Source of the DNA: Polyangia bacterium
Lineage (GTDB): Bacteria; Myxococcota_A; Polyangia; Nannocystales; Nannocystaceae
DNA: 64,000 nucleotides
Reading direction: 5' to 3'
NCBI GenBank assembly: GCA_030429545.1
Contig: JAUIFF010000001.1
Location: 403,599 to 467,598 of the forward strand
The notes beneath the pieces are model-generated. The model searched no databases and was not told the DNA's origin. It worked only from the letters and a program-made list of their open reading frames with translations. The translations under genes were made by a program, and so were the position numbers. Below are positions 7,004-62,435 of this stretch, piece by piece. Positions within the stretch are counted from its first letter, which is position 1. Each line of letters begins with the position of its first letter.

Positions 7004-8863
7004 ATGAAGTACGTCGCTGGAATCGACCTCGGGACAACCCACACCTGTGTCGCCATTGTCAAAGATGGAGTCGCCCAGGTGATCGCGGATAAGGCAGGGC
7101 TATTGACGACTCCTTCGGTTGTTACCGTGACCCGGGGTGGCAAGCGCTTGGTCGGTCATGTCGCCAAGCGGCAGTCGTTGATCAACCCGACCAACACAGT
7201 CGCCTCGGCCAAGCGCCTGATCGGACAAAAGTGGGGTACCCCAGAGACACGGGCGCTGGCCGAACAATGCCACTTTCGCCTGGTGGAGGGGCGCTACGGC
7301 GATGTCCGGGTGCGTCTGCGCGACCACGTGTACAGCGTGCCCGAGCTCAGTGCCTACCTCCTGCGCGAAATGAAGTTGCTCGCCGAACAATTTGTAGGTG
7401 CACCGGTTGAACACGCGGTTTTGACTGTCCCCGCTCACTTCAACGACAATCAGCGCCAGGCCACCCGCGACGCGGCCCGGATCGCCGGCCTGGGTGTGCT
7501 GCGGATCATCAACGAGCCGACCGCAGCGGCCGTGGCCTTCGGTGCAGGCAAGGAGCTCGAACAGCGGATCGTTGTCTACGACCTCGGTGGCGGCACATTT
7601 GATGTCTCGGTTGTCGAGGTGAGTCGCGGGGTCTTTGAAGTGATTTCAACGGCCGGCGAGACGTTTCTCGGCGGCGACGACCTCGATGCCAGGGTTGTCG
7701 AGTACCTCGTGGACCACGTGCAACAAACCCACGGCGTGGCGATTCGCAGCGAGCAGATTGTGATGCAGCGGATCCGTGACGCAGCCGAGCGGGCGCGTTG
7801 CGAGCTGTCGGTTCGCACGGCAGTCGAGATCAAAATCCCCCACCTCTATGTGTTGCCGTCGGGCGAGAGCTTGCACATCGACGAGACGCTGACGATCGAG
7901 GAGCTCGAGAGCCTGACCGAGGACCTGATCGACCGGACCATTGAGATTTGCAAGCAAACCCTGGAGCGGGCGCAGCTCACGGTCGACGCGATTGACCAGG
8001 TTGTACTCGTTGGCGGGGTCACGCAAATGCCGTTGGTGGTCCGCCGCGTGACCGAGTTGTTTGGCCGCGAACCGGCCACGGGCTACGACCCCTCGCATGT
8101 GGTTGCGCTCGGGGCAGGGATACATGCAGCTGCAACTGTTTCGCCCAACGAGGAGCTGTGCCTTCTCGACGTCGCCAGCCACAGCATTGGCGTGATGGTA
8201 CGCGGCGGCTATTTTATGCGTTTGATCGAACGCAATACCGCGATCCCAACCGAGGCGAGCCATACGTTTACGACCACCCACGACGGCCAAACGTCGGTTA
8301 AAATTCTCGTCTTGCAGGGAGAATATGAGCGGGCCGCCGATAACGAGTTGTTGGGGGAGTTTGTGCTCTCGGGGATTCGACCCGCTGCCCAGGGGAAGGT
8401 TGAGATCGAGGTTGTTGTCTCGATTTCACACGACGGGATTGTCAGTGTGTCTGCCCGCGAGTTGAGAGCCGAGCGTGAGGGGGAGGCTGAGGTCACCAGC
8501 CGGATCGAAGTGACCAACAGCAGCGGTCTGAGCCGCGCCGAGATCGAAGCGCTTGCCCGCGAGTCGCAAAACTACCTGATGCAGGCGCGCACCACCGAGG
8601 AGTTCGAGCTCGAGTGCTCCAAGACCAACCGGATGATCGCCGCTGTTCGGGCGCTGCTGCCCGAGGTCGAAGACATCATGTTCGACAGCCTGTTTGGGCG
8701 TGAAATGTTGAGCAAGACCCAATCGATAATCGACAAAGCGACCCCGGCGATGCAGCGCGGCGACATGCAGCAACTCCGGGACATCCGAGAGTCGCTCGAG
8801 CGGGCGCTAGGTATGTTTTTGCAGGTCGTGACCAAGTCGGGGCGGGGGCCGCAACGCTTGTAA
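7004..8863 (+). CDS. Hsp70-family chaperone (non-canonical DnaK paralog)
   Basis: 619 aa; IDLGTTHTCVA, VYDLGGGTFDVSVVEV, actin-like ATPase fold motifs; divergent substrate-binding domain. Confidence 0.85.
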   Translation: MKYVAGIDLGTTHTCVAIVKDGVAQVIADKAGLLTTPSVVTVTRGGKRLVGHVAKRQSLINPTNTVASAKRLIGQKWGTPETRALAEQCHFRLVEGRYGDVRVRLRDHVYSVPELSAYLLREMKLLAEQFVGAPVEHAVLTVPAHFNDNQRQATRDAARIAGLGVLRIINEPTAAAVAFGAGKELEQRIVVYDLGGGTFDVSVVEVSRGVFEVISTAGETFLGGDDLDARVVEYLVDHVQQTHGVAIRSEQIVMQRIRDAAERARCELSVRTAVEIKIPHLYVLPSGESLHIDETLTIEELESLTEDLIDRTIEICKQTLERAQLTVDAIDQVVLVGGVTQMPLVVRRVTELFGREPATGYDPSHVVALGAGIHAAATVSPNEELCLLDVASHSIGVMVRGGYFMRLIERNTAIPTEASHTFTTTHDGQTSVKILVLQGEYERAADNELLGEFVLSGIRPAAQGKVEIEVVVSISHDGIVSVSARELRAEREGEAEVTSRIEVTNSSGLSRAEIEALARESQNYLMQARTTEEFELECSKTNRMIAAVRALLPEVEDIMFDSLFGREMLSKTQSIIDKATPAMQRGDMQQLRDIRESLERALGMFLQVVTKSGRGPQRL

Positions 8864-9054: not shown

Positions 9055-9615
9055 TCACGGGATTTTGCGCAGGCTAGCGCGGTGTGGCCACGAGACGATC
9101 GCGCGACTGCGTAGGCGTTCGAGTATGCGCGGCCCGATGCCGCGAACGTCATCGAGTTCGGCTACGGTGGCAAAGGCCCGCTGCTGGCGAGCTTCGATGA
9201 TACGGCCGGCGAGGGCGGGGCCAATGCCTGGAAAACTAGCGAGCTCGTCGGCACCTGCCTCGTTGAGGTTGACCGGTAGGGCGAGGGCGGCGAGGTCGTC
9301 GGGCGGCATCCGTCGCCACCCTGGTTGTCCGCGGGTCGGATTGTTGTTGTTACAAATAATTTTTGGGACAAGGCTGTCGCCGGGTCGAATCGGTCGCCGG
9401 GGTGCGCCCGGGCAGACTTCGGCGAGTGTCGCAGGGCGCCGCTGGCCGCACACAAGGTTTCCCGCGATCATGACGGCAGACGGGCACTCGACCGGGGAGA
9501 ATGCGACGTTGGAGCCAACTGCCGGAGCTCGCCACAGTCCGACCATGAGCCAGGCAACACCCACGAAAGCGAGTTTGGTGAGGGCTTTGACTTGCCGGTG
9601 TTCGTCTGGGTGCAT
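9055..9615 (-). CDS. comEA: ComEA-like helix-hairpin-helix DNA-binding protein with N-terminal membrane anchor
   Basis: C-terminal VNLNEAGADELASFPGIGPALAGRIIEARQQ...LDDVRGIGPRILERL tandem HhH; TM helix near N-terminus (start at M 9615 preferred over 9681). Confidence 0.7.
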   Translation of the reverse strand: MHPDEHRQVKALTKLAFVGVAWLMVGLWRAPAVGSNVAFSPVECPSAVMIAGNLVCGQRRPATLAEVCPGAPRRPIRPGDSLVPKIICNNNNPTRGQPGWRRMPPDDLAALALPVNLNEAGADELASFPGIGPALAGRIIEARQQRAFATVAELDDVRGIGPRILERLRSRAIVSWPHRASLRKIP

Positions 9616-11251: not shown

Positions 11252-11536
11252 ATGGTCTCGCTGGCGGCGATCGGCTATCCCATGCCTGTGGCCGACCTTT
11301 TGCTGTGCCAGTGCAACGCGATCTACGAACGTGAAGTGCTCGTATGTATCCGTCGCGGAGCAAGGACGGTCGATGAAGTTGGCGACGAGTGTGACGCCGG
11401 GACCGGCTGCGGAAGTTGTCGTGGTGCGATCAAGACCATGATCGAAGAGGAACAGCAACGAAAGGGCGAGCACTCGTTGCCACCTGAGCTGTTGGCCCTG
11501 CCGTTATTTGCCCGCAACAAGTCTCCAAAAAAGTAG
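11252..11536 (+). CDS. BFD-like [2Fe-2S]-binding domain protein
   Basis: CQCNAIYEREVLVCIRRGARTVDEVGDECDAGTGCGSCRG matches the C-x-C...C-x2-C BFD-like [2Fe-2S] domain; exact start uncertain (ATG 11252 or 11282). Confidence 0.55.
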   Translation: MVSLAAIGYPMPVADLLLCQCNAIYEREVLVCIRRGARTVDEVGDECDAGTGCGSCRGAIKTMIEEEQQRKGEHSLPPELLALPLFARNKSPKK

Positions 11537-11664: not shown

Positions 11665-12348
11665 TCAAGCCGGCGAGAGTTTGGGATTGAGCGAAGGGGC
11701 GACCAGTTGCATAAACCAGCTCATCCGGCTCGGTTGGATCGCAACGGTCGTTGGGTCCGGGATGTTGAACTCGGCGCGAACGTCCGCGAGTGGACGTTCA
11801 AACTGTTCTTCGAGCCGCTCGCCGAGAATCATTGTGGCCCGCCGGCCGATCTCGAGGCCGACTTCGAGGTTGTGGAGCGCGCGTCTGGCCTGCATCGGGG
11901 AGAGGATGATGGTCAGCAACTTGGCAAACCGCAAAACCCAGGGGTTGCTGACGATGCCCTGGGCGTAGGTCACAGCAAACAGGCCAAGTTCACCCGCGAG
12001 CCCGGTATCGAACCCGGTGAGCAGGTGGTGGAGGTCGTGGGTCACGATGTAGCGGACGGTAAACGGATCGTTGGCGAACTCGCGTTTGACCTCGTCACTA
12101 AAGGAAAACGGCTGGATACCGTAGCGATCCATAAACCGGGCATATTCGCGGCCAAGTGTACCTTCGGGCAGGTTGCGTAACTGCTCGAGATCGATGGTTG
12201 GATAGTAGTTTGCGACACCACTGAGCTTGCCGACGACCTCGGCAGACGGCGAGCGGTAGGCTGCGAGTTCGTACAACGCTGCGTCTCCGAGCTTGCCGCT
12301 GCGGTACGCTCGCAGGGATTTGACGATGTACGAGAAAAACCGCATCAC
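11665..12348 (-). CDS. Coq4-family protein, paralog A (divergent)
   Basis: THDLHHLLTGFDTGLAGE = HDxxH-x11-E motif of Coq4 family; 227 aa. Confidence 0.7.
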   Translation of the reverse strand: MMRFFSYIVKSLRAYRSGKLGDAALYELAAYRSPSAEVVGKLSGVANYYPTIDLEQLRNLPEGTLGREYARFMDRYGIQPFSFSDEVKREFANDPFTVRYIVTHDLHHLLTGFDTGLAGELGLFAVTYAQGIVSNPWVLRFAKLLTIILSPMQARRALHNLEVGLEIGRRATMILGERLEEQFERPLADVRAEFNIPDPTTVAIQPSRMSWFMQLVAPSLNPKLSPA

Positions 12349-12631
12349 GACGCTAACTACTTTATGACGAAGCCGTCACGAATGGCAATAGAAAACTGAC
12401 AGTAGGTTGGGGCAAGCGGCCGTGCGAACTGCCACGAGGACATAAGCACACAGGTTGTCGTACATCCACGATGAAGCCTCGTGGTTTTGGTGAGCGGTTT
12501 ACACGTGGTCTGTATCCGGCTACGCGACGTGCTATATCCGTGAGTAAGTGGACGATTTCCCGCTTTTTTGGCTATTGACGTTCGTGACTTCGGAGTCATG
12601 ATTGTTGAGAACTCGAAAAGGAGTTGAGAAC

Positions 12632-13324
12632 ATGCGCTGGAACCTGATGAAAGAAATGTGGCGAAAATTTCGTAGCGGAGGCGCGGTTGCAGACGTCGCG
12701 CTGCTGAAAATCGTTGCCCTCGAACAGCGCCCCAAGAGCAGGGAAGTTCTCGACCACTTAGAGCAGGTGCGTGGCTACATCCCCGAGGCAGACATGCCGG
12801 CGCTGCGCAAACTGCCCGACGGGACGTTTGGCCGCGAGTATGCCCGGTTTTTGGATGCCCAAAACATCGACCCATTTGTCTTTAGCGATGAGCTCAAAGA
12901 GCGGTTTAGCGACGAAACCTTCGCATTTCGGTTTTTGACAACCCACGACCACCACCACGTGTTGGCCGGGTTTGATGCCGGAGCCGCGGGCGAGGCCGGC
13001 GTGCTGGCGTTCAACGTCGCCCAGGGCACATTTGGCTCAAAAGGCATGCTGTGGTTGGCCAAACTGCTCTACCCACTGTTCACTCCGTCGAATGTGTTTC
13101 GCCTGTGGCGAAATGTGCGGGTTGGATTCGCCATGGGCAAGCAGGCTAAGCTGCTGCTGGCCCAAAGGTTGGAAGACCAATACGAGCGTCCGCTGGTCGA
13201 AGTACGGGCCGCGTATGGCATTCCCGAACCGGCGTCTGCCGGCGTTGTCCCGAGCAACAGCTCGTGGATGATCAACCTCGTCTACGGCAGCCGCAAGACC
13301 CCCAAACTGGCACCTGCGTCCTAA
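12632..13324 (+). CDS. Coq4-family protein, paralog B
   Basis: THDHHHVLAGFDAGAAGE motif; AAGGAG Shine-Dalgarno 8 nt before ATG 12632; collinear with paralogs A and C. Confidence 0.7.
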   Translation: MRWNLMKEMWRKFRSGGAVADVALLKIVALEQRPKSREVLDHLEQVRGYIPEADMPALRKLPDGTFGREYARFLDAQNIDPFVFSDELKERFSDETFAFRFLTTHDHHHVLAGFDAGAAGEAGVLAFNVAQGTFGSKGMLWLAKLLYPLFTPSNVFRLWRNVRVGFAMGKQAKLLLAQRLEDQYERPLVEVRAAYGIPEPASAGVVPSNSSWMINLVYGSRKTPKLAPAS

Positions 13325-13339
13325 GCTGGCGTCCTCTCG

Positions 13340-13367
13340 ATGCCCCGGTCACCCCGGGGCATTTTTG
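13340..13367 (+). terminator. Rho-independent terminator after Coq4 paralog B
   Basis: ATGCCCCGG-tcac-CCGGGGCAT hairpin followed by TTTTTGTT. Confidence 0.6.
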
Positions 13368-13542
13368 TTGGTTCTTGTGCTCGCATTTGGCCAACATCGA
13401 TACCGAAAATCGTTGCCATTGCTCGGATTTGCTCGTCTGATTCGTCAGACGATTGTGTGAGATCGAATACATTGTGAATCGGCAAACAACTCTTGTCATT
13501 AAAGACTTGGTGGTCATGTTTGTCGTGTCGAAAGGAACACAC

Positions 13543-14220
13543 ATGAACTGGAAACTCTACCTCGATACGATTCGTGCCTACCGCTCAGGTGCGAGCCTAG
13601 GCGATGTCGCACTCATGAAGATCGCCGCGTTTCAGACGCCAAACCCCGAGGTTCGAGACCAGCTCAAGGGCCTGCGCGGCTACTACCCAGAGCTCGACCT
13701 GGCGGCGATGCGCGAGCTTCCCAACGGGACGCTCGGGCGCGAATATGTACGGTTTTTGGATGCCCAGGGGATCGAGCCGTTTGTGTTCAGCGACGAGGTC
13801 AAGGCCCGGTTCGCAAACCGCCCGTTCGCCGTCCGCTACACCGTGACCCACGATTTTCACCACGTGCTGGCGGGGTTCGATGCAGGGCTGGCTGGCGAAG
13901 CCGGTGTTGTCGCGTTCACAGTCGGGCAGGGGAGCTTCTCGGGGAAATGGCTCCTGACGTTGCAACGCTGCATCTACGCCGTGTTTTCACCCAGCCAGAT
14001 CCGCGAGGTCAGCAACAACATGAAAGTTGGGTACCGAATGGGTCGCCAAGCCAAGCTGCTACTCGGCGAGCGCCTCGAAGAACAACTGCACCGCCCGCTC
14101 GCCGATGTCCGCAAGGACCTAGGCATTCCCAACCCCAAGGTCGCCGGGGTGCGGGCGAGCAAGGAAAGCTGGATGATGCGGTTGTTTTATCCGAGTGTGA
14201 AACCAGCGGCGATCGCCTAA
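13543..14220 (+). CDS. Coq4-family protein, paralog C
   Basis: TVTHDFHHVLAGFDAGLAGE motif; AAAGGA SD before ATG 13543; about 60% identical to paralog B. Confidence 0.7.
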   Translation: MNWKLYLDTIRAYRSGASLGDVALMKIAAFQTPNPEVRDQLKGLRGYYPELDLAAMRELPNGTLGREYVRFLDAQGIEPFVFSDEVKARFANRPFAVRYTVTHDFHHVLAGFDAGLAGEAGVVAFTVGQGSFSGKWLLTLQRCIYAVFSPSQIREVSNNMKVGYRMGRQAKLLLGERLEEQLHRPLADVRKDLGIPNPKVAGVRASKESWMMRLFYPSVKPAAIA

Positions 14221-14246
14221 ATCGTTGCATCACCAATAAATACGAG

Positions 14247-14278
14247 CCCGCGCCGACTGGTGCGGGTTTCTAGGTTTG
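14247..14278 (+). terminator. Putative terminator after Coq4 paralog C
   Basis: CCCGCGCC-gact-GGTGCGGG stem (one G-U) followed by TTTCTAGGTTTG. Confidence 0.45.
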
Positions 14279-14295
14279 CAACAAAAGCCTGCCTG

Positions 14296-14850
14296 TCTTA
14301 GCGGGCCGTCACGCGGTGGTGCGATGCCCGTCCATTCGAGCCGGCGCGGCGGTGTAGCGAGAAACTCGAGCACAGTCCGTCTTATCGGGCCTGTACGGTG
14401 TGCGATACCCGTCTTATCGGGTCGGCGCTGCGGTGTAGCAAGACACTCGAGCGCAGTGATGTGGTCTCATTGGGCCGGCGATGGTGCCCGACTTATCGGG
14501 CCGGCGCGGCGGTGTAGCGAGCAACCGAAACTCGAGCGCAGTGATGCCCGTCTCATTGGGCCGGCGGCGATGGCCGTCCTATCGGGCCGACGCGGCGGTG
14601 TAGCGAGCGCAGTGATGTGTGCCCGTCTTATCGGGTCGGTGCGGCGGTGTAGTGAGCAACCGAAACTCGAGCGCAGTGATGTGTTGCCCCGACCGTCTTA
14701 TCGGGTCGGTGCGGCGGTGTAGCGAGCAACCGAAACACGAGCGCAGTGCCCGGCCTGTACGGTGGTGTAGCGAGTAACCGAAACTCGAGCGCAGTGATGG
14801 TCGGCGCGGTGTTGCGAGCTGCGATGTTGTACCCGTCTTATCGGGCGCCG
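14296..14850. repeat. Irregular tandem repeat (~10 units, 30-80 bp spacing) built from a CCCG-TCTTAT-CGGG mini-hairpin module plus a CGGCGGTGTAGCGAGCAACCGAAACTCGAGCGCAGTGATG module
   Basis: Direct inspection: cccgtcttatcggg recurs at 14377, 14408, 14487 (variant), 14547 (variant), 14575, 14622, 14694, 14832; ggcggtgtagcgag recurs at least 7 times; all unit content is conserved (no unique spacers). Confidence 0.8.
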
Positions 14851-14893
14851 TGAACCCACGAGTGCAGCGCCAGTTTGCTGTGGTGCCCGCCGC

Positions 14894-17800
14894 CTACTTC
14901 TGTGGCTGGGCGGTACCTGGCTGGATGCCTGGCGAAATCGTTGAGCCACGAAACCCGCTGCTGTTACCCGCTGGCGGTTGTGAACCCGACTGCGTGTTTG
15001 AGCTGGAGTTGTTTGGTGTCGAGGTTCCGGACTGTCCGGTTGAGGCGGCGGGAGGTTGTCCGGAAGTGCCGGCCTGTCCGGAAGTGCCGGCCTGTCCCGA
15101 AGTACCGGCCTGTCCCGAAGTACCGGCCTGTCCCGAAGTACCAGGTTGGGTGCTCGTGGGAGGTTGCCCCGTGGGCGTCCCGGTGCTCGGTTGACCCGTG
15201 GACGTCCCGGCGCCAGACTGCGGTGTTTTTCCGGGGATCTTGAGCCCGGGCAGGGGCCGCGACGGTCCGGGGGCATTGGGCTGGACTGTGGGTTTGGGCG
15301 CACCATTTTTGGGACGCAGCTCCGGGGCCTTCTCGGCCTCTTTGGCCTTGACCTTGGCCTTGACCTTGCGGCCCTTGTAGCGGCGCTTCATCACCGGTTT
15401 AGGTTTGAGCTTGATCCGCCCGCCAAACAGGGAGAAGTAGCGGACGCCGTTTTCGTTGCCGCCACCGATTGCGCCAAACAGTGCCCGCCAGTGCAGGCCG
15501 TCGTTGCCGTCCTCGCCCACGCGGCTCCACCACGCGAGGCCCGGACCGACCACATTGGTCGCCTTGTCGCCGTTTTTGTGGCGCACAAACAGGGCCGGAA
15601 TAATCTGGGTCTCGCGGTTTTCACGGCGGAAGTCCCACCACAGCGGGAACCCGACGGTGCGGTTTTTATCGCCGCGTTCGATGTGCCAAACCAGCGGGAA
15701 CTGGACGAAGTCGAGGTTTTCACCCTTGCGTCGTTGCACATACAACGCCGGGAAAATCGAGGTCCAGGCCGTGTCCTTGGCCTTGTGGTTGTCGCGCAGG
15801 TACAGCGGCAACAGCCAGTGTAGGCGGCGCTCGGCATAACTGTGGCTATGCACAAAGATCGGCGGGATGATGGCGGTGGTGACCTTGTGCGGCTTGCGGA
15901 AGTTCCAAACCAGCAGCGCCGCCTGGAACCACCGGGCCTCCTCTTTGCGCTGGCTGATAAATAGCGGGGGGAGCACGACGTTGGTGCTGCGGTCCTCGAC
16001 CCGATGCCGCTTGCGGTAAAACAGCGGGAACACCAGCGTCTCGCGGTATTTTTTGGTGACTGTGTGGCCAAAAAAGCCGGCGTACCAGGTCAGGCGCTCC
16101 TTGGGCTGGTAGTTGTAGCCGCCGAGCCAGGTGTAGAGCTTGCGCCCGCCCTTGCCGTTGCGATCGGCGTAGTACAGGCCGAGGGCGCTGTGGGTGCGAC
16201 GACCCTGGCCGTCCTTGCCGTACATAAACAGCGGGAACGAACCCCAAAGCGTGTACCTGCAACTCGGGTCGTCCTCTTTGCGGAAGTTACATTTTTGGTA
16301 GCGGAACAGCAGCGGAACAACCCCGGTAAACCGGTAGTTTTTGCGCAGCCTGAAGATGTCGAAGTAAAGCGGCGGCGCAATGCTCATGCGCGTGAAGTTG
16401 TGCAGCCGCTTGACGCTAAACACGAACGGGAGGGCGACCCAGGTGCGCGAACCGTTGGCGCGTTGGCGGTCAAACCAGATCGGCAGGGCCAGGGTGTAGT
16501 GCTCTTTCGACCGCTTTTTCTCGTTGTGGATAATCAGCGGCAGGGCGATAAGCCGCCGGTTTTCGACCGAGTCCTTCCACCAATAAAGCGGCGCGACCCC
16601 GGTGTTGAGTTGGGTACGGCTGAGGCGGTGAAAAAACGGCCCGGCGATGAGCGTGTGGGTGCGCCGGTGTTTGTTGCGGCTGTAAAAAAACGGCAGCCCG
16701 GCATCGACATCGACCCCGCCGGGTTGGCGCTGGCGGAAGTAAAACGGGACCACCGCAAAGTTGCGGCGTGGGTGCTCGCCGTCGACCCGACTGCGCCAGA
16801 TAAGTGGCGTGATCATGTCGAGGTCGTCGCCCGGTGTCCGCCGGCGGATATAAAGCGGTGGGACCACGGTGTGCGTCGCCATCCCGCCCTCGGTTGGCCG
16901 TTTGTCGTGGAACAACAGCGGGGCGACACCAAACCCCTTACGCCCGTCGGCACCCTGTTGCCCATACACCGGCCCGGCGACCCAGGTACGTCCCTTGTCC
17001 GACTTGAGACCGCCGCCTAGGGGGGTGAGGGTCAACACCCGCGACTGCCCGTCGACCGTACGCTGGCGCCGGTAGTACAGCGGGAACAGCATGCTGTCGC
17101 GGGAGTCCTTGCGTTTGACATCCCAGGCGATCAGCCCCGCGCCGAGGGTGCGGTGGTCGGGGCCCTTGGAGCGGACAAACAGCGGTGAGATTGTGGTCGA
17201 CTTGTTGGCTTTGACGTCGGTGACGTGCCCGGTCAACAGCGGCAGCACAAGTGCGTAGCGGTGGTTTTCGTCGCGTCCGCTGACAAACACCGGGGGCAGG
17301 CCCGCGTGCCACCCGGTCGGTTTTCGTTGCAGGTACAACGGCGGGATCGCAAACGTATGCTTCTTGGCCTTTTTGTCGTGGACGTGCCAAAACAGCGGGG
17401 TGATGACCTGGTAGGCACGCTCGTCGTTGCGCCCGGTAAACGTCAACAGTGCAGGTACACCAAACCGCCGCTGGTTGGGGTCGCGGGTGCGGTACAAAAG
17501 CGGCGGGGCAACCAACGTGTCGCGTTTTTTGTCGCGGTTGTTGAAGTGCCAAAACAGCGGGGTGACGACCTGGTACGAAAGTCCGGTTTTGCGTTGGCGG
17601 ACAAACGTGAGGGCCGGGAGGACCGAAAACCCAAACCCGTCCTTAGCCCGGGTACCGCCGGCGATCGGGGTAAACACCCGCATCGAGTCGGGCGTTTTGC
17701 GGGTGAACACCAGGGGAAACAGGACATTGCTGGTGACCTGTTTACGGCGGTCGGAAAACCGCCAAAAGATCGGTGCAAATACAGCATTTTGCTGGCGTGG

Positions 17801-19190
17801 ATCGCTGTGGAGCACCAGCGGCCCGGCGACCGTGGTTTTGCTGCCTTCGAGGCGGTTGCGGGCGTGCCAGACAAGCGGCGTGGCCGACCAAAGGTCGCGG
17901 TCGCGGTTGCTCGACTTAAACGTGAGCAGCGGCGGGATGGCCCAGGCTGAGCCCTTGCGGGCCTTGTCGCTGCGCTTGATAAATAACGGCGTCCACAGCT
18001 CGCGGCGATTGCCAAACTCGTTGGATTGCCAGTGAAAAAACGGGAACAGCGTGTGGTGCTTGAGCCCCTTGACCTTGTCGTAGCCGCCGACATACAGCGG
18101 AATACCGACATCGGTCTTGGTGAGGCCCTTGACCCGGCGCACGAAAAACGGTGCAGCTACAAGATATTTACGGTCGCTGAGCGGGTTGCCGTCTTTGAGG
18201 TCCTTGTTGCCGTACCACACCAATACGCCAGACATCGCCCGCAGGCTGTCGGGGGTTTTTTGGTGGTAGTGAAACGGGCCGACAACCAGGTTTTTGACGT
18301 GGCGGTTACCCCAGGCCCACACCAGCGGAAACTGGCCAAAGGTGTATTGCTCGCCAACCCGCTTGTAGCCCATCAGCAGGGGGATCGAGCCCCAGGCCGA
18401 GGTCCGCTCGCTAAACGAACCCATAAACAGGGCGAGCGGGGCGATGTAGCGGCGCTTTTTCTTGGCCTTGCTGTACCAGCCAAACGTCAGGGAGAGGTCG
18501 GCGTGGAACAGTTTCTCCGGGTGCTCTTTGGTGCCCTTGCGATGGATAAAAAGCGGCGGGAGGGTGAGCGCCCGGGTGCGGTGGGTGTTGTATTCCATGT
18601 CCACCCAAAACGGGGGGACGTTGCGCTTTTTGAGCAGCTCCGGGCGGACGTACTCGGGCTCGGGCGTGGTGCCGTCGGGGATCGGCAGGATGTCGTCGGG
18701 GTCCGTTGGCGAACCCATTGTAGATGCATCTTCATCCTCGTCGGGCTCGGTCTCGCGGGGGACGGCGATCGGTTGGGCCGAGGGCACCGGAATGGTCGGG
18801 CTGGGGCCAGTTGCGGGAATCGGTGTCGCCTCGCTCGGAGGTGCCGGATCGCTGCTCGGGACCGTGCCTGCGCCAGCACGCTCGGGTGCACTGGCATCGG
18901 CCCCGGTGCCGGCATTGGGCCCAGGCTCGCTACCTGAGGCGGTGGGAACTTCGGCGCCGGCAGGTGTTGTGCCGGGTGCATAGAGGTTGGCCCAGGTGTC
19001 GACCGGGCCGTGGTGGGCCAACAGTGACGTACCAAAGTAGTCGGGAGTGGCCGCGAGCGAGGTATCGACCTCGACCGCAAACGCGTGGGCTGTGGCGCTC
19101 CAAAGTGCGAGGCTCACCACCGCGACGAGCGGCAGTGGGCGGCGAGCAAAACTGGGAAGGGAGCGTCTCAGGAGCGTGGATTCCCGGAGT
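14894..19190 (-). CDS. Very large secreted repeat protein (~1,430 aa): ~50 tandem ~19-aa repeats with conserved P-[LIF]-[FLYW] core, C-terminal G/T/S/Q-rich low-complexity tail
   Basis: Track ORF 14894..19519; signal-peptide-like [21 protein letters not shown]|FAVEV near 19100-19190, so the true start is probably an alternative codon near 19190 (uncertain). Repeats such as [19 protein letters not shown] / [19 protein letters not shown]; C-terminus [24 protein letters not shown]. Confidence 0.7.
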
Positions 19191-19460
19191 GCGCACCCGG
19201 GATGGAGGAGGAAGTTGCAGCTGCGATGACCGGAAGTCTTGTGCGCGTCGACACCGATTGCTCGGGAGCGTCCACGGGCCGGTGGGAGATAGCGGACGGG
19301 GGTTTGCAGTGTCAACTGTCGAGATGCCTGGAGTTTTTCGGAATAGACCCGCGACCGGAGTTGTTTTTGTCGGCCTGCGCGAGATGCAAGAAGACACACA
19401 CACAGGTGATTGCTCCTGCGTGATTGACACCTCACAGCCACAGCGCTAAAGCCGTGCATT

Positions 19461-20102
19461 GTGGTTGCAGGATCGAAGCGAACCGAATTGGCTCCGGTCG
19501 ACACGTTGCGAGTCGACATCCCCGCACTGATTGGGCGAGGTCCCGGTCCCTATGAAGTAGATGTCGAGGTTGCCCCGGCGTGGGTGAAACAGGCGTTGGC
19601 GGGTACCGATGCCGAGGTCCAACAACTCGCCCAGCTGCGCGGAGAACTCAGCCTCCAGGGCAAGACAGCCCTGTTTCGCGGCCATTTTACCGCGGTCTTT
19701 GAGGTCCCCTGTGCCCGGTGTTTGGAGGGGGCGGCGGTCGATGGAGGCGGCGAGTTGTGTGTCCACTTTGAGCGCGGCGAGAGCAAGCGCCCAAAACTCG
19801 AAGAGGATGACGAAGAAGAGATCGACACCGGCTCACCCGAGCAATTCACGTTCGACGGGATCACACTCGATCTACGACCCATGCTCGTCGAGCACCTGGT
19901 GATGGCCTACCCGATGCGCGCGTTGTGTGAGCGCGGTGAGGATTGTCGGGGGTTGTGTTCGCAGTGTGGCGCCAACCTCAATTCCCAGGGGGAAGGGGGC
20001 CCGTGCTCAGCCTGTGCCGGGCAACAGGCGGCCCAACCTCCCGAGCCCGCGGGCAATGCCAGTTGGCAAGCTGCCCTGCGCAAGATCCGAGACAAGAGCT
20101 GA
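19461..20102 (+). CDS. yceD: YceD/DUF177 family protein (23S rRNA accumulation protein) preceding rpmF
   Basis: CARCLEG...CSQC / CSAC Cys pairs typical of DUF177; conserved position upstream of rpmF-plsX. Confidence 0.8.
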   Translation: MVAGSKRTELAPVDTLRVDIPALIGRGPGPYEVDVEVAPAWVKQALAGTDAEVQQLAQLRGELSLQGKTALFRGHFTAVFEVPCARCLEGAAVDGGGELCVHFERGESKRPKLEEDDEEEIDTGSPEQFTFDGITLDLRPMLVEHLVMAYPMRALCERGEDCRGLCSQCGANLNSQGEGGPCSACAGQQAAQPPEPAGNASWQAALRKIRDKS

Positions 20103-32528: not shown

Positions 32529-35255
32529 GTGGCCGCGATGACGGGCCCCAGACAGCATGGCTGGCTCTACGCCGCGATCGCCAAATTCTCGATCCGGCGG
32601 TGGCTATGGGTGATGGCCGGCCTTTTGGCGGTTGTGATCGTCGCCGGACTCGCGGTCCCACAAATTGGGATCACGACCAATCGGTTTGGCATGGTCAGCT
32701 CCGATAATCCCAGCCAGGCCACGCTCGAGGCCTATTTTGAGCGGTTTGGCTACCCGGATCTTCCCGTGGTGGTGGTCCGCGGGGCGGATGCCGAAACCCG
32801 GCAGCAGGTTGTCGACGAGCTGCAGGTTGCCTACGAGGCCATGCCGATCCTCGAGGGTCGGGTGCTTGCCCGGCTCGGGCCCGAGGCGATCGCAGAGTTC
32901 TTGTTTGTACAAGATCCCCACGTCATCGCCGAGCTGCGCGACATGGTTGGCTCGACCGACAAACCACTTCCCGAGCTCATTGAAGGCGGGTTGCCAGCAC
33001 TGATGGATGTGGTTGGCAATCGCCTGCAGGCGGGGCTCGACGGCAACGATGCCGGGCCGGCCCAAACCGAAGCGCAACAAACCGAGGGATTTCGCCAGCT
33101 CGGCAACATCGCCGAGGCCCTGTCACGCAACCTCCAAGACCAGGAAATCGACGAACAACTGCGGGCTTTGTCGGGTATGGACACGGTGCCCGAACGCCGG
33201 GGGATCGACGACCGCGGCTACTTTGTCGGCTGGAAAGGCGAGCATCACCTCGTCGCCCTGTTCCCGGTGTTTGCCAGCGGTGAGGTCGACGACATAGCTC
33301 CGGTGATCAACGAGATTCGGGCGACTTCAAGCGAGGTGCAGCAGCGGTTTGCCGACCAAGGTGTCGAGGTCATGGTCACCGGGCTGCCGGTGTTTTCGAC
33401 CGACGAGATGGCGCTTATCCGCCGCGGGATTTTGGTCAGCAGCGTCCTCACTGGCCTGGCGATCTTCTTGCTGCAGCTGTACGCGTTTCGTTCGTTGCGA
33501 ATGGCGATCTACGTGCAGTTGCCACTGGGGATCGGCCTGGTGTTGACCCTGGGCGCGGTGTGGCTGCTGTACGGCTATCTCACCATCGTGACCTCGAGCT
33601 TTATCGCCATCTTGCTGGGCCTTGGGATCGACTTCTCGATCCACATCCTCGCCCGGGCCAACGAGTTTCGCCGCGAGGGGCTGGAGGCCGGGCCGAGCAT
33701 GGTCGCGGCGATGCAGTCGGCGGGGCCGGGGGTGGTGATCGGGGCCCTGACCACGGTCATCGCGTTCTTGGCCACCATGACAACCGAGTTCACCGCGTTC
33801 GCCGAACTCGGGGTGATCACCTCGATCGGCCTGATCACGATGATGGTGGTGGCGTTGTTTGTGATGCCTGCGCTCGCCGGGCAGGGGTGGGGTGGCAATC
33901 GGTTCTACGAGGCCAAGATCCACGGGGTGTCGCAGTTACCGAGGTTTGTCCGCGCTGCCCCCAAAGTGCTGGTCGGGTTTGGCTTGGTGGCTGCGATCGC
34001 GGGTGCGGTGGCGTTCCCATCGGTCAAGTTCAACGCCCGCTACTTCGACTTCTTGCCCGATGAGTCACCGGCTGCAATCGCCCTCGACCTACTCGAAGAA
34101 GACGGGGCCATGAGCCCGGCGTTTGCCTGTTTTCAGGCGCCCAACTTCGAGGCCGCCCGCGAGAAGGCCGAGCAACTGCGCAAGCTCGACCTGATCGCCG
34201 ATGTCCAAACGCCGACAGATCTCGCACCCAAGTTGACGCCAGACCTGTTGTCGGAGTTGCGTGCCGGGTTTGCTGGCCTACCGCGTCAGCCCGACTTTGA
34301 GCGCCTGGCCAATGCCCCGGTGTCGGCGACTGACATTGCGACCAAGGTGACACGGATCGTCGACCTGTTTGACGAGGTTCGGTTTGAGCTCAAACGCAAC
34401 GACCGCGATACAGCGGCCGTCGATGCCGCGATCAAACAGTTTCGCCAACTCGCCGAGGTGCTGCGTGGCCTGCCTGAAGACGGTCAACCCCGGCTGCGAA
34501 AGATGCATCAGCAAATTTCGCGGATCATGGGACGGGCCTGGACGACCGGGCGGGCGATCGCCGAACGTGGAGAATATGCACCCGAAGACATGCCTGAGCT
34601 GTTCAAAGTGCGGTTTATGGCGGTCGATGGGTCTGGCGCAGTGGCGTTGTTCGCCACCCCCAACATCAATATTTGGGAACTGGAGAACGCCGAGCGGTTC
34701 CACCGGCAGCTCGAGACCGTCGACCCTGATGCGACCGGCTTTGCGGTGACCCTCCACGAGCACCACTCGATGATCTTTCACGGGTTTGGCCGGGCCGTTG
34801 TGGTTGCGGCGATCCTCGTGTTTTTGGTGGTCTTGGCCCAATTCCGCAATCTCAAAGACTCACTGTTGGTCATGTTCCCAGTCGCGTTGGGCTGGTCGTG
34901 GATGATCGGGACGATGGCGCTGTTCAGCATACCGCTCAACGTCGTCAATATTGTTGTATTGCCACTTGTTGTTGGGATCGGTATCGATGCCGCTGTGCAC
35001 GTGATGCACCGTGCACGCCAGTCGGCCGAGACCCATGGCAAGGCCCGACTTTCAGACCTGCTCGAAGGAACAGGAGCTGCTGTCTTGCTATCCTCGCTGA
35101 CGACGATTTTTGCCTTCGCCGGGCTTATCGTCGGGGCCGAGTATGGTGGGATGTTGAGCCTGGGCCTGGCGATGATGATCGGGGTTGGCAGCTGTCTATT
35201 TGCCTGTGTGGTGGTGCTGCCTGCTCTGCTCGTGTGGCTCGGGCGAGCCGAGTAG
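32529..35255 (+). CDS. MMPL/RND-superfamily transporter (12 TM, two periplasmic loops)
   Basis: 908 aa; two SSD/MMPL transmembrane blocks (GLGIDFSIHIL..., GIGIDAAVHVMH...). Confidence 0.8.
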   Translation: MAAMTGPRQHGWLYAAIAKFSIRRWLWVMAGLLAVVIVAGLAVPQIGITTNRFGMVSSDNPSQATLEAYFERFGYPDLPVVVVRGADAETRQQVVDELQVAYEAMPILEGRVLARLGPEAIAEFLFVQDPHVIAELRDMVGSTDKPLPELIEGGLPALMDVVGNRLQAGLDGNDAGPAQTEAQQTEGFRQLGNIAEALSRNLQDQEIDEQLRALSGMDTVPERRGIDDRGYFVGWKGEHHLVALFPVFASGEVDDIAPVINEIRATSSEVQQRFADQGVEVMVTGLPVFSTDEMALIRRGILVSSVLTGLAIFLLQLYAFRSLRMAIYVQLPLGIGLVLTLGAVWLLYGYLTIVTSSFIAILLGLGIDFSIHILARANEFRREGLEAGPSMVAAMQSAGPGVVIGALTTVIAFLATMTTEFTAFAELGVITSIGLITMMVVALFVMPALAGQGWGGNRFYEAKIHGVSQLPRFVRAAPKVLVGFGLVAAIAGAVAFPSVKFNARYFDFLPDESPAAIALDLLEEDGAMSPAFACFQAPNFEAAREKAEQLRKLDLIADVQTPTDLAPKLTPDLLSELRAGFAGLPRQPDFERLANAPVSATDIATKVTRIVDLFDEVRFELKRNDRDTAAVDAAIKQFRQLAEVLRGLPEDGQPRLRKMHQQISRIMGRAWTTGRAIAERGEYAPEDMPELFKVRFMAVDGSGAVALFATPNINIWELENAERFHRQLETVDPDATGFAVTLHEHHSMIFHGFGRAVVVAAILVFLVVLAQFRNLKDSLLVMFPVALGWSWMIGTMALFSIPLNVVNIVVLPLVVGIGIDAAVHVMHRARQSAETHGKARLSDLLEGTGAAVLLSSLTTIFAFAGLIVGAEYGGMLSLGLAMMIGVGSCLFACVVVLPALLVWLGRAE

Positions 35256-35430
35256 GGGGGGCACCTTCAGGCAACCAAAACAAGAGCAGCTGGACAAATC
35301 CTGCTGCCTGGGTTGAGTTGTCGCTGAAGACGAAGTTGTGCCTGTGTCGTGGCTCGGGCGAGCCGAGTAGGGTGCACAACTTTAGGCAACCAACACAAAG
35401 GCAGCTGGACGGATCCAGCTGCCTTGGCTT
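35232..35430 (+). repeat. Tandem duplication (2 units, ~113 bp period) of the MMPL gene 3' end plus its downstream hairpin
   Basis: gtggctcgggcgagccgagtaggg...caaccaa.acaa.gcagctggac..atcc.gctgcc occurs at 35232-35314 and again at 35345-35430; second copy has perfect GCAGCTGG-acggat-CCAGCTGC hairpin. Confidence 0.6.
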
Positions 35431-35451
35431 GGTTGTGAGGTCGATGGTGGC

Positions 35452-35943
35452 TTAGCGCGCTCGCAGGCCCTTTTCTTTGATGGGCTGGTCGGTGTTTGCC
35501 GTTCCTGCGGTTTTGGTGTTGCCGACCCCCTTGGGCTTGGCCGCTGCTTTTTTGGCGCCGAAGGTTGAGTTGCTCGGGTTGCCTGCGTCACCGGATTTTG
35601 CAGTTGAGACGGTCGAGCCGGTGTCCGAAGGTGCGGCTGGACGGTTGCTGCCCGCAGCGGCACCGCCATCGGCGTCGGTGTTGGGTGTCTCGTTAGAACT
35701 CGGAGTGTCGTCGGCGGGAGCTGGTGCCGGGGTTGGGCTTTTGCCCTTATCCATGTCGGGTGTTGCAGCCGGAGCTTTACCAGGTGAGCGGCCGGGGCTT
35801 CGCCCGGTTTTGGGAGTGCGTCCCTCACTCGAGCTCGGAGCCTTGGAGCCTGTCGAAGCAGAGTAGGAGAAGGAGCAACCCGGAAGCCCAAAGCTGGCGA
35901 GTGTAACGGCAAGAATGAAGGAAGCAGAACGGGTTTGTGGCAT
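35452..35943 (-). CDS. Putative lipoprotein, low-complexity S/T/P/A/K-rich
   Basis: N-terminal ILAVTLASFGLPGC lipobox-like signal; GAGGAA SD 5 nt upstream of ATG; rest low complexity. Confidence 0.45.
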   Translation of the reverse strand: MPQTRSASFILAVTLASFGLPGCSFSYSASTGSKAPSSSEGRTPKTGRSPGRSPGKAPAATPDMDKGKSPTPAPAPADDTPSSNETPNTDADGGAAAGSNRPAAPSDTGSTVSTAKSGDAGNPSNSTFGAKKAAAKPKGVGNTKTAGTANTDQPIKEKGLRAR

Positions 35944-36288
35944 AGGTTCCTCGCTTGTCGGGGATGGGGGACGCGGGGTCAGGTGTGATATTCACGCGTG
36001 TTTGCCCGCCGCTGTCAAATCTATCTCGCACGGCCGGGGAAGTTTTTGCCCCCGCACTTGATATTTTCGCTCTGGGTTGAGGTGTGGATCTGAGCGGGCG
36101 CAGCGAGCGATATCAAGATTCTTCCAAACCGGTCCTTGGGGACAGCTTCGAAAGGTGCCTTAAAAAGCCGGCTGGATGGGCCATAACTACTAAATTTTGA
36201 ATCTACTGGACAACTACAGGGGGGCAGGCGCTAGCGTCAATCTAGCTTTTATGGGGCACGTTTCGTGCCGGGAGGGGATGGGATTGAC

Positions 36289-37098
36289 ATGACACGACAG
36301 AAAACCGACGAGCAACGCAAGCGGCAAATCCGGGCCGCCGCCACTCGATGCTTCGTTCGTCGGGGCTTCGCGGCGACGCGACTCCTCGACATTGCGCGAG
36401 AAGCGGGGTTGAGCAAAGGCGGAGTTTATTTTCATTACAGAGCAAAAGAAGCACTGTTCCACGATATTCTCGATGCCCAACTCGACGCCCTCAAACGGCG
36501 ATGGAGTTTTCAGCCAGGAACCGACCAGCCGGCAGACCTGCTGCTTGGGACCCTCGTACGTGCACACGTCCAGGAGTTGGCCAACGAACCCGACGAAACT
36601 CGCTTGTGCAACTTGTTGGTCACGATGGCAGTACAAGAGCCTGACTTCCGCACCAAACTCGATAGCGCCTTTCGCGTGACCCGCAATCTGTATCAAGAGG
36701 TGATTGCCCGTGGATTAGCATCTGGCGTGTTTCATGGCCCCGATGCCGGGCAAATGGCAATAGCCGTGCACGGCTTTGTTCAGGGCCTGGCCGCATGTTC
36801 GGCAACCGACGAGCACGGGAAGTTGCCGATGTCGGCCGACGCCGCGGCCCGTCTTGCGTTGACGATGTGTGGGGCAAATCCCGATTGCCTGCCAGCACCG
36901 GCACCCGTAGTGACAGCGCCAAGTGACACAGACACTGCGGACACTGCGTCGCCTGACGAAGGGACTCCCGACGGGGAGGGTACGCTCGCGGCCGATGCGA
37001 ATGACACAACTGCCGACGCCCCGGAGTCCTCAGACGAACAGGCATCGAATGCGTCGCCGGGTGATGCACCCCCCGATTCGAACGAAGCGGCAAACTAG
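36289..37098 (+). CDS. TetR-family transcriptional regulator with acidic low-complexity C-terminal tail
   Basis: RQIRAAATRCFVRRGFAATRLLDIAREAGLSKGGVYFHY = TetR HTH. Confidence 0.85.
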   Translation: MTRQKTDEQRKRQIRAAATRCFVRRGFAATRLLDIAREAGLSKGGVYFHYRAKEALFHDILDAQLDALKRRWSFQPGTDQPADLLLGTLVRAHVQELANEPDETRLCNLLVTMAVQEPDFRTKLDSAFRVTRNLYQEVIARGLASGVFHGPDAGQMAIAVHGFVQGLAACSATDEHGKLPMSADAAARLALTMCGANPDCLPAPAPVVTAPSDTDTADTASPDEGTPDGEGTLAADANDTTADAPESSDEQASNASPGDAPPDSNEAAN

Positions 37099-46850: not shown

Positions 46851-47005
46851 CGTGTCGATGCGGCTTTCAAGAATCGGGCCGACTTGGGGCGCCCAAGTTT
46901 CGTGGCGCGAAGTTAGCTAGCTATGAGAAACCTGTGGGGAGACTTCATCACCAGTGGGGATTTCTCCGCAGTCGCCTTTCCGCCCCAAAATCATGTATGC
47001 GCAAG

Positions 47006-60345: not shown

Positions 60346-60531
60346 CGGCCCCCCAACCATCTGAACCGATCCTGTGGAGATGTCCACAAGCTGGGCCCAT
60401 CTGCGTCACACCGGGCCCAACGGTTGATCATCTCAGGGGGAAGTACTGCCAACTGCACAGGGCTTGTGCGCCGTTGCGAGGTGGATCACGTGCAATCGCC
60501 GACGGGTGCGGGATGATCTCGATATCGGCAG

Positions 60532-61626
60532 TTGCTGGCGTCCAGCGCCCTTGCGCGATACGCTCGCATGCCGCGAATGTCGGCTCTCGACTCGACGCAC
60601 GGACGACATTCTTCTATCTTCCCCGCCGGTTTCAGGAGCACATTGTCGATCACCAACAACGCCTCAAGTGTGTCAGCCGGCGGCCTGCGTTCGGCCCCGC
60701 TACCTACACGTGAGGCTGTGCGCGAACGGGCGACGCCCTACGAAATCATTGAGCGCATCTGGTTGGTGATTTGGATAGGCTTTACCGCCGCGGCCCTGGT
60801 GCTCTACGCCCAGGGGCGGGGCAGCTTTGAGGTTTTGCGCAACTCCCTCGGGTTGCTGGTTGGAATCATTGTAATTCCAAGGATTACCCGCCCGCTTGGC
60901 CAACGCGCTGTCGACATCGGGCGGACCATCATCAACCCGATTGCCAACATGCTCTCGTACGAGTGGTCGGTGATGGTGATTGCCGCGGTCCTGACCAAGT
61001 CGTACGAGATCGAGATGTTGAAGATCGACGCCTGGCTGTTTGGCGGCAATCCGTCCGAGTGGGTCCAGGCGCTGCATCACCCGTGGCTCACCGAGTATCT
61101 CCAGATCGCCTATGTGAGTTACTTCCCGGTTTTGCTCGGGGTTGCGATCCTCCTGGTGGTCCGCGGCAAGAGCCAAGTGTTGTTGCGCTATTGCCTGGCG
61201 ATGACCCTGGCGATCCTCTCGACCCATTTGCTGTACATTTTGGTGCCCGTGCGCTCGCCGTTTTTGCTGGTCGACCAACAGCCGTGGAGCGACTGGATCG
61301 GCTACGATTTCCCGCTTCAGGGGGTTTGGGTGGCCGAGAGCCTGCGCGAGGGGCTGCTCACCACCACCGCCGGGCGCTACGATTGCTTCCCGAGTGGGCA
61401 CACCATGCACACGATCCTGGCGATGTACTTTTCGTGGTACCTCAGCCGGCCGATTGCCTGGATCGTCACGTTGCTGGGCTGCTCGATCATCTTTTCGACG
61501 CTTTACCTCCGCTACCACTATGGTATCGACCTGCTGGTCGGCGCCCCGTTGGCGGTGCTGTGGATTTACGTCGCAAACCGCTTGGCGCGCGGCAGTTCCA
61601 CGGACCCCGAGCGGGCATCCTCCTAA
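60532..61626 (+). CDS. PAP2-superfamily membrane enzyme of the AUR1 / sphingomyelin-synthase type (phosphosphingolipid head-group transferase-like)
   Basis: DCFPSGHTMH and YLRYHYGIDLLVG reproduce the C-P-S-G-H and H-Y-x-x-D motifs of IPC-synthase/SMS enzymes; 6+ TM helices; exact start uncertain. Confidence 0.6.
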   Translation: MLASSALARYARMPRMSALDSTHGRHSSIFPAGFRSTLSITNNASSVSAGGLRSAPLPTREAVRERATPYEIIERIWLVIWIGFTAAALVLYAQGRGSFEVLRNSLGLLVGIIVIPRITRPLGQRAVDIGRTIINPIANMLSYEWSVMVIAAVLTKSYEIEMLKIDAWLFGGNPSEWVQALHHPWLTEYLQIAYVSYFPVLLGVAILLVVRGKSQVLLRYCLAMTLAILSTHLLYILVPVRSPFLLVDQQPWSDWIGYDFPLQGVWVAESLREGLLTTTAGRYDCFPSGHTMHTILAMYFSWYLSRPIAWIVTLLGCSIIFSTLYLRYHYGIDLLVGAPLAVLWIYVANRLARGSSTDPERASS

Positions 61627-61653
61627 CCCGAGGTCGCCGGCACTGGATCGCAC

Positions 61654-62427: not shown

Positions 62428-62435
62428 CATGGCCG

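Follow-up and report, generated by a model that had tools for sequence, protein, structure and literature searches.

Our results indicate that three adjacent genes in a 64-kb stretch of a Polyangia bacterium genome (GenBank GCA_030429545.1, contig JAUIFF010000001.1, positions 403,599 to 467,598; hereafter the window) encode proteins of the Coq4 family, and that the three promoters are homologous and share the palindrome GTGAC-N6-GTCAY. The reading that we favour, with a confidence only somewhat above even, is that these genes, coq4-A, coq4-B and coq4-C, form a repressor-controlled, ligand-inducible regulon of Coq4 metalloenzymes that is not dedicated to ubiquinone. Each of the four rival explanations considered here fits the data less well. 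The open reading frames (ORFs) lie where the initial annotation had placed them and carry the metal-binding motifs that it quoted:

11665-12345, minus strand: coq4-A, 226 residues, motif HDLHHLLTGFDTGLAGE; an ORF that matches Pfam PF05019 with 59.2 bits
12632-13324, plus strand: coq4-B, 230 residues, motif HDHHHVLAGFDAGAAGE; Shine-Dalgarno sequence AAGGAG 7 nt upstream
13543-14220, plus strand: coq4-C, 225 residues, motif HDFHHVLAGFDAGLAGE; Shine-Dalgarno sequence AAGGAA

Membership of the Coq4 family, which the initial annotation had proposed, is secure, because the profile score, the motif alignment and the model fold agree. Besides coq4-A, coq4-B (51.2 bits) and coq4-C (55.0 bits) lie well above the curated gathering cut-off of PF05019 (22.9 bits), and with E-values from 5e-16 to 1e-13 the matches are not due to chance. 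They cover profile positions 72-220 in A and C and 51-219 in B, which is the C-terminal two-thirds to three-quarters of the model; no NCBIfam model matched any of the three proteins. The HDxxH-x11-E metal motif is complete in A, B and C. Among PDB sequences, C matches only 3MSQ, a Nostoc punctiforme 'putative ubiquinone biosynthesis protein' (E = 5.7e-15), and 6E12, which is Alr8543 (E = 7.9e-9), and every residue of its segment THDFHHVLAGFDAGLAGE has an aligned counterpart in THDIWHVVTGCDTDKPGE of 6E12 and in THDIYHVVAGFDTNVFGE of 3MSQ. The motif therefore falls on the ligand positions of Alr8543, as had been anticipated; in 6E12, the Asp and the Glu of the motif coordinate metal ions (PMC10680789). 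Residues T102, H103, D104, H107 and E119 are invariant in an 18-sequence alignment. The AlphaFold2 model of C is all-helical (predicted local distance difference test, pLDDT, 89.8; predicted template-modelling score, pTM, 0.85), and in a Foldseek search of the PDB its only significant matches are again 6E12 and 3MSQ, with probability 1.0, a template-modelling (TM) score of 0.57-0.65 and a root-mean-square deviation of 6-7.5 Å. The structural comparison with Nostoc Alr8543 that had been suggested thus agrees with the profile, and the moderate TM score and the identity of about 21% point to a distant branch of the family.

The metal site bears on an older view of Coq4, in which A, B and C would be non-catalytic lipid-binding or scaffold proteins that hold polyprenyl or fatty-acyl lipids, the triplication serving dosage or partner specificity. 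The Alr8543 crystal holds oleic acid in a hydrophobic tunnel (PMC10680789), and Coq4 was long regarded as an organiser of complex Q (PMC10680789, PMC8969065). Pure lipid binding would not need the metal ligands, yet these are strictly conserved in all three copies and HDxxH-x11-E is kept in 59 of 65 collected homologues. Moreover, COQ4 metal-site mutants lose catalysis while retaining the structural role (PMC10680789, PMC7615680), and no conserved partner genes accompany the family. We consider a purely structural function rather improbable.

Regulation is where the three genes resemble one another beyond their coding sequences. When the 125 nt upstream of each start codon were aligned, one homologous block emerged (A, CTATTGCCATTCGTGACGGCTTCGTCAT; B, CTATTGACGTTCGTGACTTCGGAGTCAT; C, CTCTTGTCATTAAAGACTTGGTGGTCAT), which consists in each case of a -35 box followed by the palindrome GTGAC-N6-GTCAT running into the -10 box. 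Since the block is homologous in A, B and C, the promoter was part of the duplicated unit. The initial annotation had missed this shared TetR-type operator. Its elements are the following:

12359-12388, minus strand: promoter-like site of coq4-A, TTGCCA, 18 nt, TAAAGT; from a consensus scan and homology to the B and C promoters
12364-12379, no strand assigned: putative operator O-A, gene-strand GTGACGGCTTCGTCAT, a palindrome that overlaps the spacer and the -10 box; 10.2 bits with a position weight matrix (PWM) built from sites outside the window only
12575-12602, plus strand: promoter-like site of coq4-B, TTGACG, 16 nt, CATGAT; from the consensus scan
12584-12599, no strand assigned: putative operator O-B, GTGACTTCGGAGTCAT, an exact palindrome; PWM 10.8 bits
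13493-13520, plus strand: inferred promoter of coq4-C, TTGTCA, 16 nt, CATGTT; from the three-way upstream alignment
13502-13517, no strand assigned: putative operator O-C, AAGACTTGGTGGTCAT, with a degenerate left half-site; PWM 8.8 bits

All three putative operators lie within about 60 nt upstream of a Coq4 start codon, and O-C is as far from its -35 box as O-A and O-B are from theirs. The promoter of coq4-C scores below the threshold of the consensus scan, those of A and B above it. The promoters of A and B mirror each other as the arms of a 28-nt inverted repeat (12364-12391 and 12572-12599; 75% complementarity), and these arms coincide with the two promoter-like sites found by the scan. The exact sequence TGAC-N6-GTCA is found three times in the 64 kb, where about one occurrence is expected, and two of the three are the promoters of A and B. 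Between O-A and O-B, both half-sites have changed symmetrically (TGACG...CGTCA versus TGACT...AGTCA), the pattern expected if a dimer reads the site. The two intergenic regions that hold these promoters are also low in GC, as had been pointed out (0.46-0.55, against a window mean of 0.62). In public gene calls, coq4-C begins at an ATG at 13516 and encodes 234 residues; this ATG lies within the inferred -10 box and operator. The 225-residue product is more likely, given that the ATG at 13543 has a Shine-Dalgarno sequence and fits the N-termini of the homologues.

The same palindrome is found in relatives, in the company of a regulator gene. It lies 30-60 nt upstream of Coq4 homologues in loci L011, L017, L020, L021, L022, L064 and L065, in one copy in L011 and in two copies each in L017, L020, L021 and L022. 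In L056, a weaker match (14.0 bits) precedes the first Coq4 gene by about 86 nt. In total, eight other lineages have the palindrome in front of a Coq4 homologue, and in six of them a TetR gene adjoins the Coq4 gene. In L017, L021 and L022, a TetR gene (PF00440) comes directly after Coq4, its start codon overlapping or abutting the Coq4 stop codon, while in L020 it is divergent from the Coq4 gene. Three independently picked orthologues of this TetR, P0351 (L064), P0357 (L065) and P0330 (L066, the same locus as L022), each stand directly behind a Coq4 gene, and their loci carry two operators at -30 to -56. About 1 Mb of sequence contains 51 sites that reach 8 bits or more with the PWM, and 17 of them are no more than 200 nt upstream of a Coq4 gene. 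In 18 of 53 genome loci, an immediate neighbour of the Coq4 gene is a TetR-like ORF, while the 850 kb of flanking DNA contain only three others. These neighbouring ORFs represent at least three TetR subfamilies in three arrangements. In these relatives the palindrome serves as operator for a two-gene coq4-tetR module that is autoregulated. A literature search for a link between TetR and Coq4, for the operator or for studies of PF05019 returned nothing relevant, nor was a description of the module found in the literature searched.

Because the palindrome shared by the three window promoters is the operator of this module in relatives, coq4-A, coq4-B and coq4-C are most likely one regulon, and we infer from the sites that it is repressed by a TetR protein and inducible. 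The duplications, which are old and confined to this lineage, copied a whole unit of promoter, operator and gene, and an inverted one gave the divergent A/B pair. According to this model, each coq4 gene would be transcribed alone from a sigma-70-like promoter, and the 16-bp palindrome, which overlaps the spacer and the -10 box of each promoter, would bind a TetR-family dimer whose gene lies elsewhere in the genome. With the spacer and the -10 box occluded by this dimer, all three genes would stay repressed until a small, probably lipophilic ligand relieved the repression. Two hairpins lie downstream of B and C:

13339-13363, plus strand: strong intrinsic terminator of coq4-B, a GC-rich 10-bp stem followed by the U-tract TTTTTGTTGG; -20.9 kcal/mol, z = -2.5
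14244-14268, plus strand: terminator-like hairpin 3' of coq4-C, an 11-bp stem with a weak U-tract; -20 kcal/mol, z = -2.3

The initial annotation had given B and C each a Shine-Dalgarno sequence and a hairpin terminator of its own. This is borne out for B and C but does not extend to A, which has no clear Shine-Dalgarno sequence and no convincing terminator. The promoter-like site of coq4-A leaves a very short leader without a Shine-Dalgarno sequence, and a GTG at 12348 is an alternative start.

The products would each bind a lipid-tailed compound resembling 4-hydroxybenzoate and remove its ring carboxyl, possibly with hydroxylation, as judged by homology to COQ4. In vitro, COQ4 decarboxylates prenyl-4-hydroxybenzoates at C1 in a Zn-dependent manner (PMC7615680); in vivo it acts as an oxidative decarboxylase that depends on O2 (PMC10680789). 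By analogy, A, B and C probably decarboxylate lipophilic hydroxy-aromatic acids, the class of substrate that we infer for them. Three diverged copies may widen the substrate range, and the proposal of the initial annotation that they act on a family of prenylated aromatic substrates is plausible.

The copies are neither recent nor identical in their degree of divergence. Protein identity is 45% between A and B, 53% between A and C and 55% between B and C. B and C are thus related as had been noted, at 55% rather than the approximately 60% given then, and A, correctly described as divergently transcribed, is on the minus strand and is 53% identical to C. A neighbour-joining tree of 67 homologues (500 bootstraps) places A, B, C and the metagenomic protein P0002 in one clade (83%), within which B pairs with P0002 (83%) and A, weakly, with C (62%). 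The duplications are therefore lineage-specific and old, given this clade and identities of 45-55%, which contradicts a recent duplication of the three copies, one of the outcomes that a phylogeny had been expected to test. Tandem copies recur within the clade: the P0002 contig, L056, has a second, truncated Coq4 gene immediately downstream. All other loci have one copy, except for the same-strain contigs L057, L058 and L063, and for L056 and L029 with two copies each. Compared with a sister strain, coq4-B has 14 synonymous and 4 non-synonymous differences, a ratio consistent with purifying selection; the differences in A (0 synonymous, 1 non-synonymous) and C (2 synonymous, 1 non-synonymous) are too few to judge.

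The differences between the window and the sister-strain contig L057, 57 in all, are strongly clustered at 12758-13282, 8164-8533 and 9403-9546: coq4-B contains 18 of them, a single part of dnaK 15, and the stretch that separates dnaK from the aspartate kinase gene 11; in this stretch, an HHH-domain gene is called in L057. This clustering suggests recombination tracts instead of uniform divergence. The Coq4 triplet itself also occurs in Logan assemblies of three or more sequencing runs; over 2.1 kb one contig is identical to the window, and two others show about 99.4-99.5% identity to it. An NCBI assembly likewise encodes the identical proteins on a contig of 1.55 Mb.

Several observations weigh against an inducible regulon. 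O-C is degenerate, and the window operators score 9-11 bits, compared with 21-23 bits in the TetR-linked loci. No TetR gene adjoins the Coq4 cluster, and a tblastn search of the 64-kb window with the TetR of the module (E <= 1e-3) found nothing. The window contains a single TetR gene (36265-37098), which has an MMPL gene as neighbour and is 22 kb from the cluster; it was rejected as the regulator, being not orthologous to the module TetR and having no operator nearby. On the 1.55-Mb source contig no module TetR orthologue turned up either, which is a weak negative, and the closest single-copy relatives (L001, L004-L009) have neither operator nor TetR. Gene neighbourhoods likewise gave no clue to the substrate. 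All-against-all clustering of the ORFs within 5 kb of a Coq4 gene, in 54 sources (53 loci and the window), yielded no conserved neighbours other than antisense ORFs, Ser/Thr kinases, histidine kinases and TetR proteins, and the gene calls of eight contigs revealed no recurring enzyme, with alpha/beta hydrolases and SRPBCC proteins recurring loosely. Finally, we know of no bacterial Coq4 homologue that has been characterised enzymatically.

The want of a cognate TetR in the window or on the source contig and the low scores of the window sites would also be expected if the palindrome were a relic of the duplicated promoter, or if it bound a regulator of another family, so that the genes were not under TetR control here. 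The symmetry of the palindrome has nevertheless outlasted a divergence that left the proteins 45-55% identical, and O-A has changed in both half-sites at once. L011 has a perfect site at the same promoter position, likewise without an adjacent TetR gene. A relic or a different regulator is therefore judged unlikely, and control by a distant TetR protein remains our preferred explanation of the sites.

The aspartate kinase of the window is closest to those of a Myxococcales bacterium metagenome-assembled genome (MAG; 75%), Nannocystis (70%) and Enhygromyxa (62%); these best named matches, the MAG and Nannocystis, agree with the myxobacterial host assumed at the outset and make it Nannocystaceae-like. 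Also as assumed, this is a menaquinone group: for myxobacteria only menaquinones have been reported, namely MK-8, with MK-8(H2) in Plesiocystis and MK-7 in Enhygromyxa (PMC3035250). Given the menaquinone lineage and the apparent inducibility, the substrates are likelier to be specialised or exogenous prenyl- or alkyl-hydroxyaromatic acids than intermediates of ubiquinone.

A cryptic benzoquinone pathway, ubiquinone- or plastoquinone-like, would be an alternative, with the Coq4 paralogues replacing UbiD/UbiX, and possibly UbiH, at C1 and the other ubi genes lying elsewhere. In eukaryotes this step is carried out by COQ4, which also rescues E. coli mutants in ubiD and in ubiH (PMC10680789), UbiD/X is missing from some Pseudomonadota (PMC12998194), and the genome was inspected over 64 kb. 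However, a 2026 survey reports bacterial ubiquinone only in Pseudomonadota and one class of Desulfobacterota (PMC13386864), and both Plesiocystis and Enhygromyxa carry a Coq4 homologue while only menaquinones are reported for them (PMC3035250). Apart from A, B and C, the window has no ubi, coq, men or mqn gene; genes for UbiA/Coq2, Coq3/UbiG, Coq5/UbiE or a hydroxylase are likewise missing from it and from the surroundings of the homologues, and no ubi gene stands near any of the approximately 60 homologue loci. A TetR operator and a patchy, multi-copy distribution would moreover be unusual for a core respiratory pathway. We regard such a pathway as quite improbable; a full ubiquinone pathway in this genome would be notable in itself, as it would extend ubiquinone to Myxococcota.

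It could also be that the proteins serve menaquinone itself, for instance by taking the place of a UbiD-like enzyme in the futalosine route and decarboxylating prenylated 1,4-dihydroxy-6-naphthoate there, or by tailoring menaquinone-derived myxoquinones. The futalosine route does include a UbiD-type decarboxylation of a prenylated hydroxy-aromatic acid. Menaquinone is the quinone of the lineage (PMC3035250), and the former Deltaproteobacteria often switch between the Men and futalosine pathways (PMC13386864). Yet no men or mqn gene is near any homologue, the family is patchy in Myxococcota with one to three copies, and TetR control speaks against an essential step. A role in menaquinone biosynthesis or modification is thus very improbable, and inducible enzymes with substrates outside the respiratory quinones are favoured over it.

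A pattern-seeded scan of one genome per GTDB species yielded 53 loci, mostly from Myxococcota (Polyangiaceae, Nannocystaceae, Kofleriaceae, Enhygromyxa salina, Plesiocystis pacifica, Paraliomyxa with two loci, and Cystobacter fuscus), together with a few Binatia, one cyanobacterium and one Pseudomonadales MAG; this picture is skewed to the A/B/C subfamily, from which the seed patterns were derived. The best match among the GTDB representatives is 53% identical, so that they do not include the source species. Among 1.84 billion representatives clustered at 50% identity, an exhaustive hidden Markov model search recovered 2021 proteins with E <= 1e-3, of which 74 reach E <= 1e-30. The family is therefore small, as the initial annotation implied in calling bacterial homologues sparse, yet it is not rare in Myxococcota, and homologues have been reported as widespread in proteobacteria and cyanobacteria (PMC5714133), so that the word was overstated. 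Myxobacterial homologues already carry the NCBI annotation 'Coq4 family protein', and for this reason family membership is not new. What is new is the triplicated, co-regulated arrangement and the recurrent partnership with TetR and its operator.

Eukaryotic COQ4 (human COQ4 and yeast Coq4) shares with A, B and C the Pfam family, the HDxxH-x11-E motif, a similar size and the all-helical fold. The window proteins differ in lacking a mitochondrial presequence, in covering only part of the profile and in being three; the window has no COQ/Ubi partner genes and has an apparent repressor operator, and the host lineage is not known for ubiquinone. Alr8543 (6E12) and the Npun protein (3MSQ), stand-alone bacterial proteins with a lipid tunnel, are the only significant sequence and fold matches of C in the PDB and have an aligned motif. 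At about 21% identity and 6-7.5 Å, however, their helices must be rearranged relative to C, and they are single genes with no reported link to TetR. The coq4-tetR module of Myxococcota (L017, L020, L021, L022/L066, L064 and L065) resembles the window in Coq4 family, operator and promoter position, but there a single Coq4 gene with two operators in tandem stands next to a TetR gene, whereas the window has three Coq4 genes with one weaker operator each and no adjacent TetR.

Plants offer a parallel for the expansion. In shikonin-producing Boraginales, a radiation of COQ4-like paralogues accompanies the biosynthesis of shikonin from geranyl-4-hydroxybenzoate (PMC8969065), so that there, too, Coq4 has multiplied, in connection with specialised metabolism of a prenylated 4-hydroxybenzoate and not with ubiquinone. 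These are plant nuclear genes, and their functional link is one of co-expression only. As a working analogy for the regulation, the PadR-PadC stress module of Firmicutes combines a small, cofactor-light decarboxylase of hydroxy-aromatic acids with a dedicated repressor and is induced by its substrate. It differs in that the folds are unrelated, the repressor is PadR instead of TetR and the substrates are hydrophilic cinnamic acids.

The Coq4 cluster is flanked, as described initially, by a Bfd-like gene on one side and a giant ORF on the other:

11252-11536, plus strand: Bfd-like [2Fe-2S] protein gene, 94 residues, PF04324, convergent with coq4-A
14894-19519, minus strand: ORF of 1541 residues, no Pfam match

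A connection between the ferredoxin-like gene and Coq4 was rejected: the only loci other than the window in which a Bfd homologue accompanies Coq4 are L057 and L058, both contigs of the same species; the remaining 55 or more loci have none, and the adjacency that had made it look like a linked neighbour is not conserved outside the species. No bacterioferritin gene lies in its immediate neighbourhood. The 1541-residue product has numerous short recurring PLF/PLL-W motifs and a C-terminal tail rich in Gly, Thr, Ser and Gln, which derives from an 18-nt tandem repeat (15057-15142, 4.8 copies). Between coq4-C and this gene, positions 14280-14860 hold some 7-10 imperfect direct repeats, each joining the core CCGTCTTATCGGGYCGG to GGCGGTGTAGCGAGCAACCGAAACTCGAGCGCAGTGATG, irregularly spaced at 26-140 nt, with no inverted repeats, no Rfam match and no further copies in the window; three same-species short-read contigs all stop inside this array, at 14652. 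An Rfam scan of 11-15 kb found nothing.

The rest of the window is a housekeeping region, with genes for TypA/BipA, DnaK, aspartate kinase, YceD, PlsX, acyl carrier protein, FabF, RpiB and NrdR, and further for RibD, RibE, RibBA, CoaBC, MgsA, PdxJ, DsbD, MMPL transporters and a P450 (50958-52376). Genes related to lipids include an MMPL/RND-like transporter that adjoins the TetR gene at 36265-37098 (32529-37098 together) and, at 60517-63998, a PAP2 phosphatase, a PEMT-like methyltransferase and a second MMPL protein with a match to the sterol-sensing domain. An ORF on the minus strand (44370-46916) has a weak, below-threshold match (23 bits) to HTTM, a domain related to vitamin K-dependent gamma-carboxylase. 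A confident HTTM gene (L002, 5393-6331) lies about 4 kb from the Enhygromyxa Coq4 homologue, possibly by coincidence in a menaquinone organism. Within a few kb of Coq4 homologues there are also SRPBCC/Polyketide_cyc2 genes, which have the Coq10 fold, and SCP2 genes (L001, 1513-2043; L065, 305-784 and 2071-2736; L064, 1092-1409); SRPBCC and SCP2 domains are common in these genomes.

The catalytic role of COQ4 was assigned only in 2023-2024, and its mechanism is disputed between a plain Zn-dependent and an O2-dependent oxidative decarboxylase. A small stand-alone Coq4 protein paired with a dedicated ligand-sensing repressor would be a tractable starting point for finding the natural substrate, through the ligand that the TetR binds, and for working out the chemistry of the fold. 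The arrangement described here suggests that the bacterial Coq4 homologues of menaquinone lineages are inducible accessory enzymes, which would give the Coq4 fold a role outside ubiquinone synthesis in lineages reported to have menaquinones only. We tentatively extend this, as a possibility that we hold less probable than not, to the proposal that the Coq4 homologues of Myxococcota and of some Binatia may constitute a new class of substrate-inducible, TetR-gated, metal-dependent decarboxylases, possibly oxidative, for lipophilic hydroxy-aromatic acids, and not ubiquinone proteins. If so, the window would represent a TetR-gated system expanded to a three-enzyme regulon, and the ligand of the TetR protein would reveal the natural substrate.

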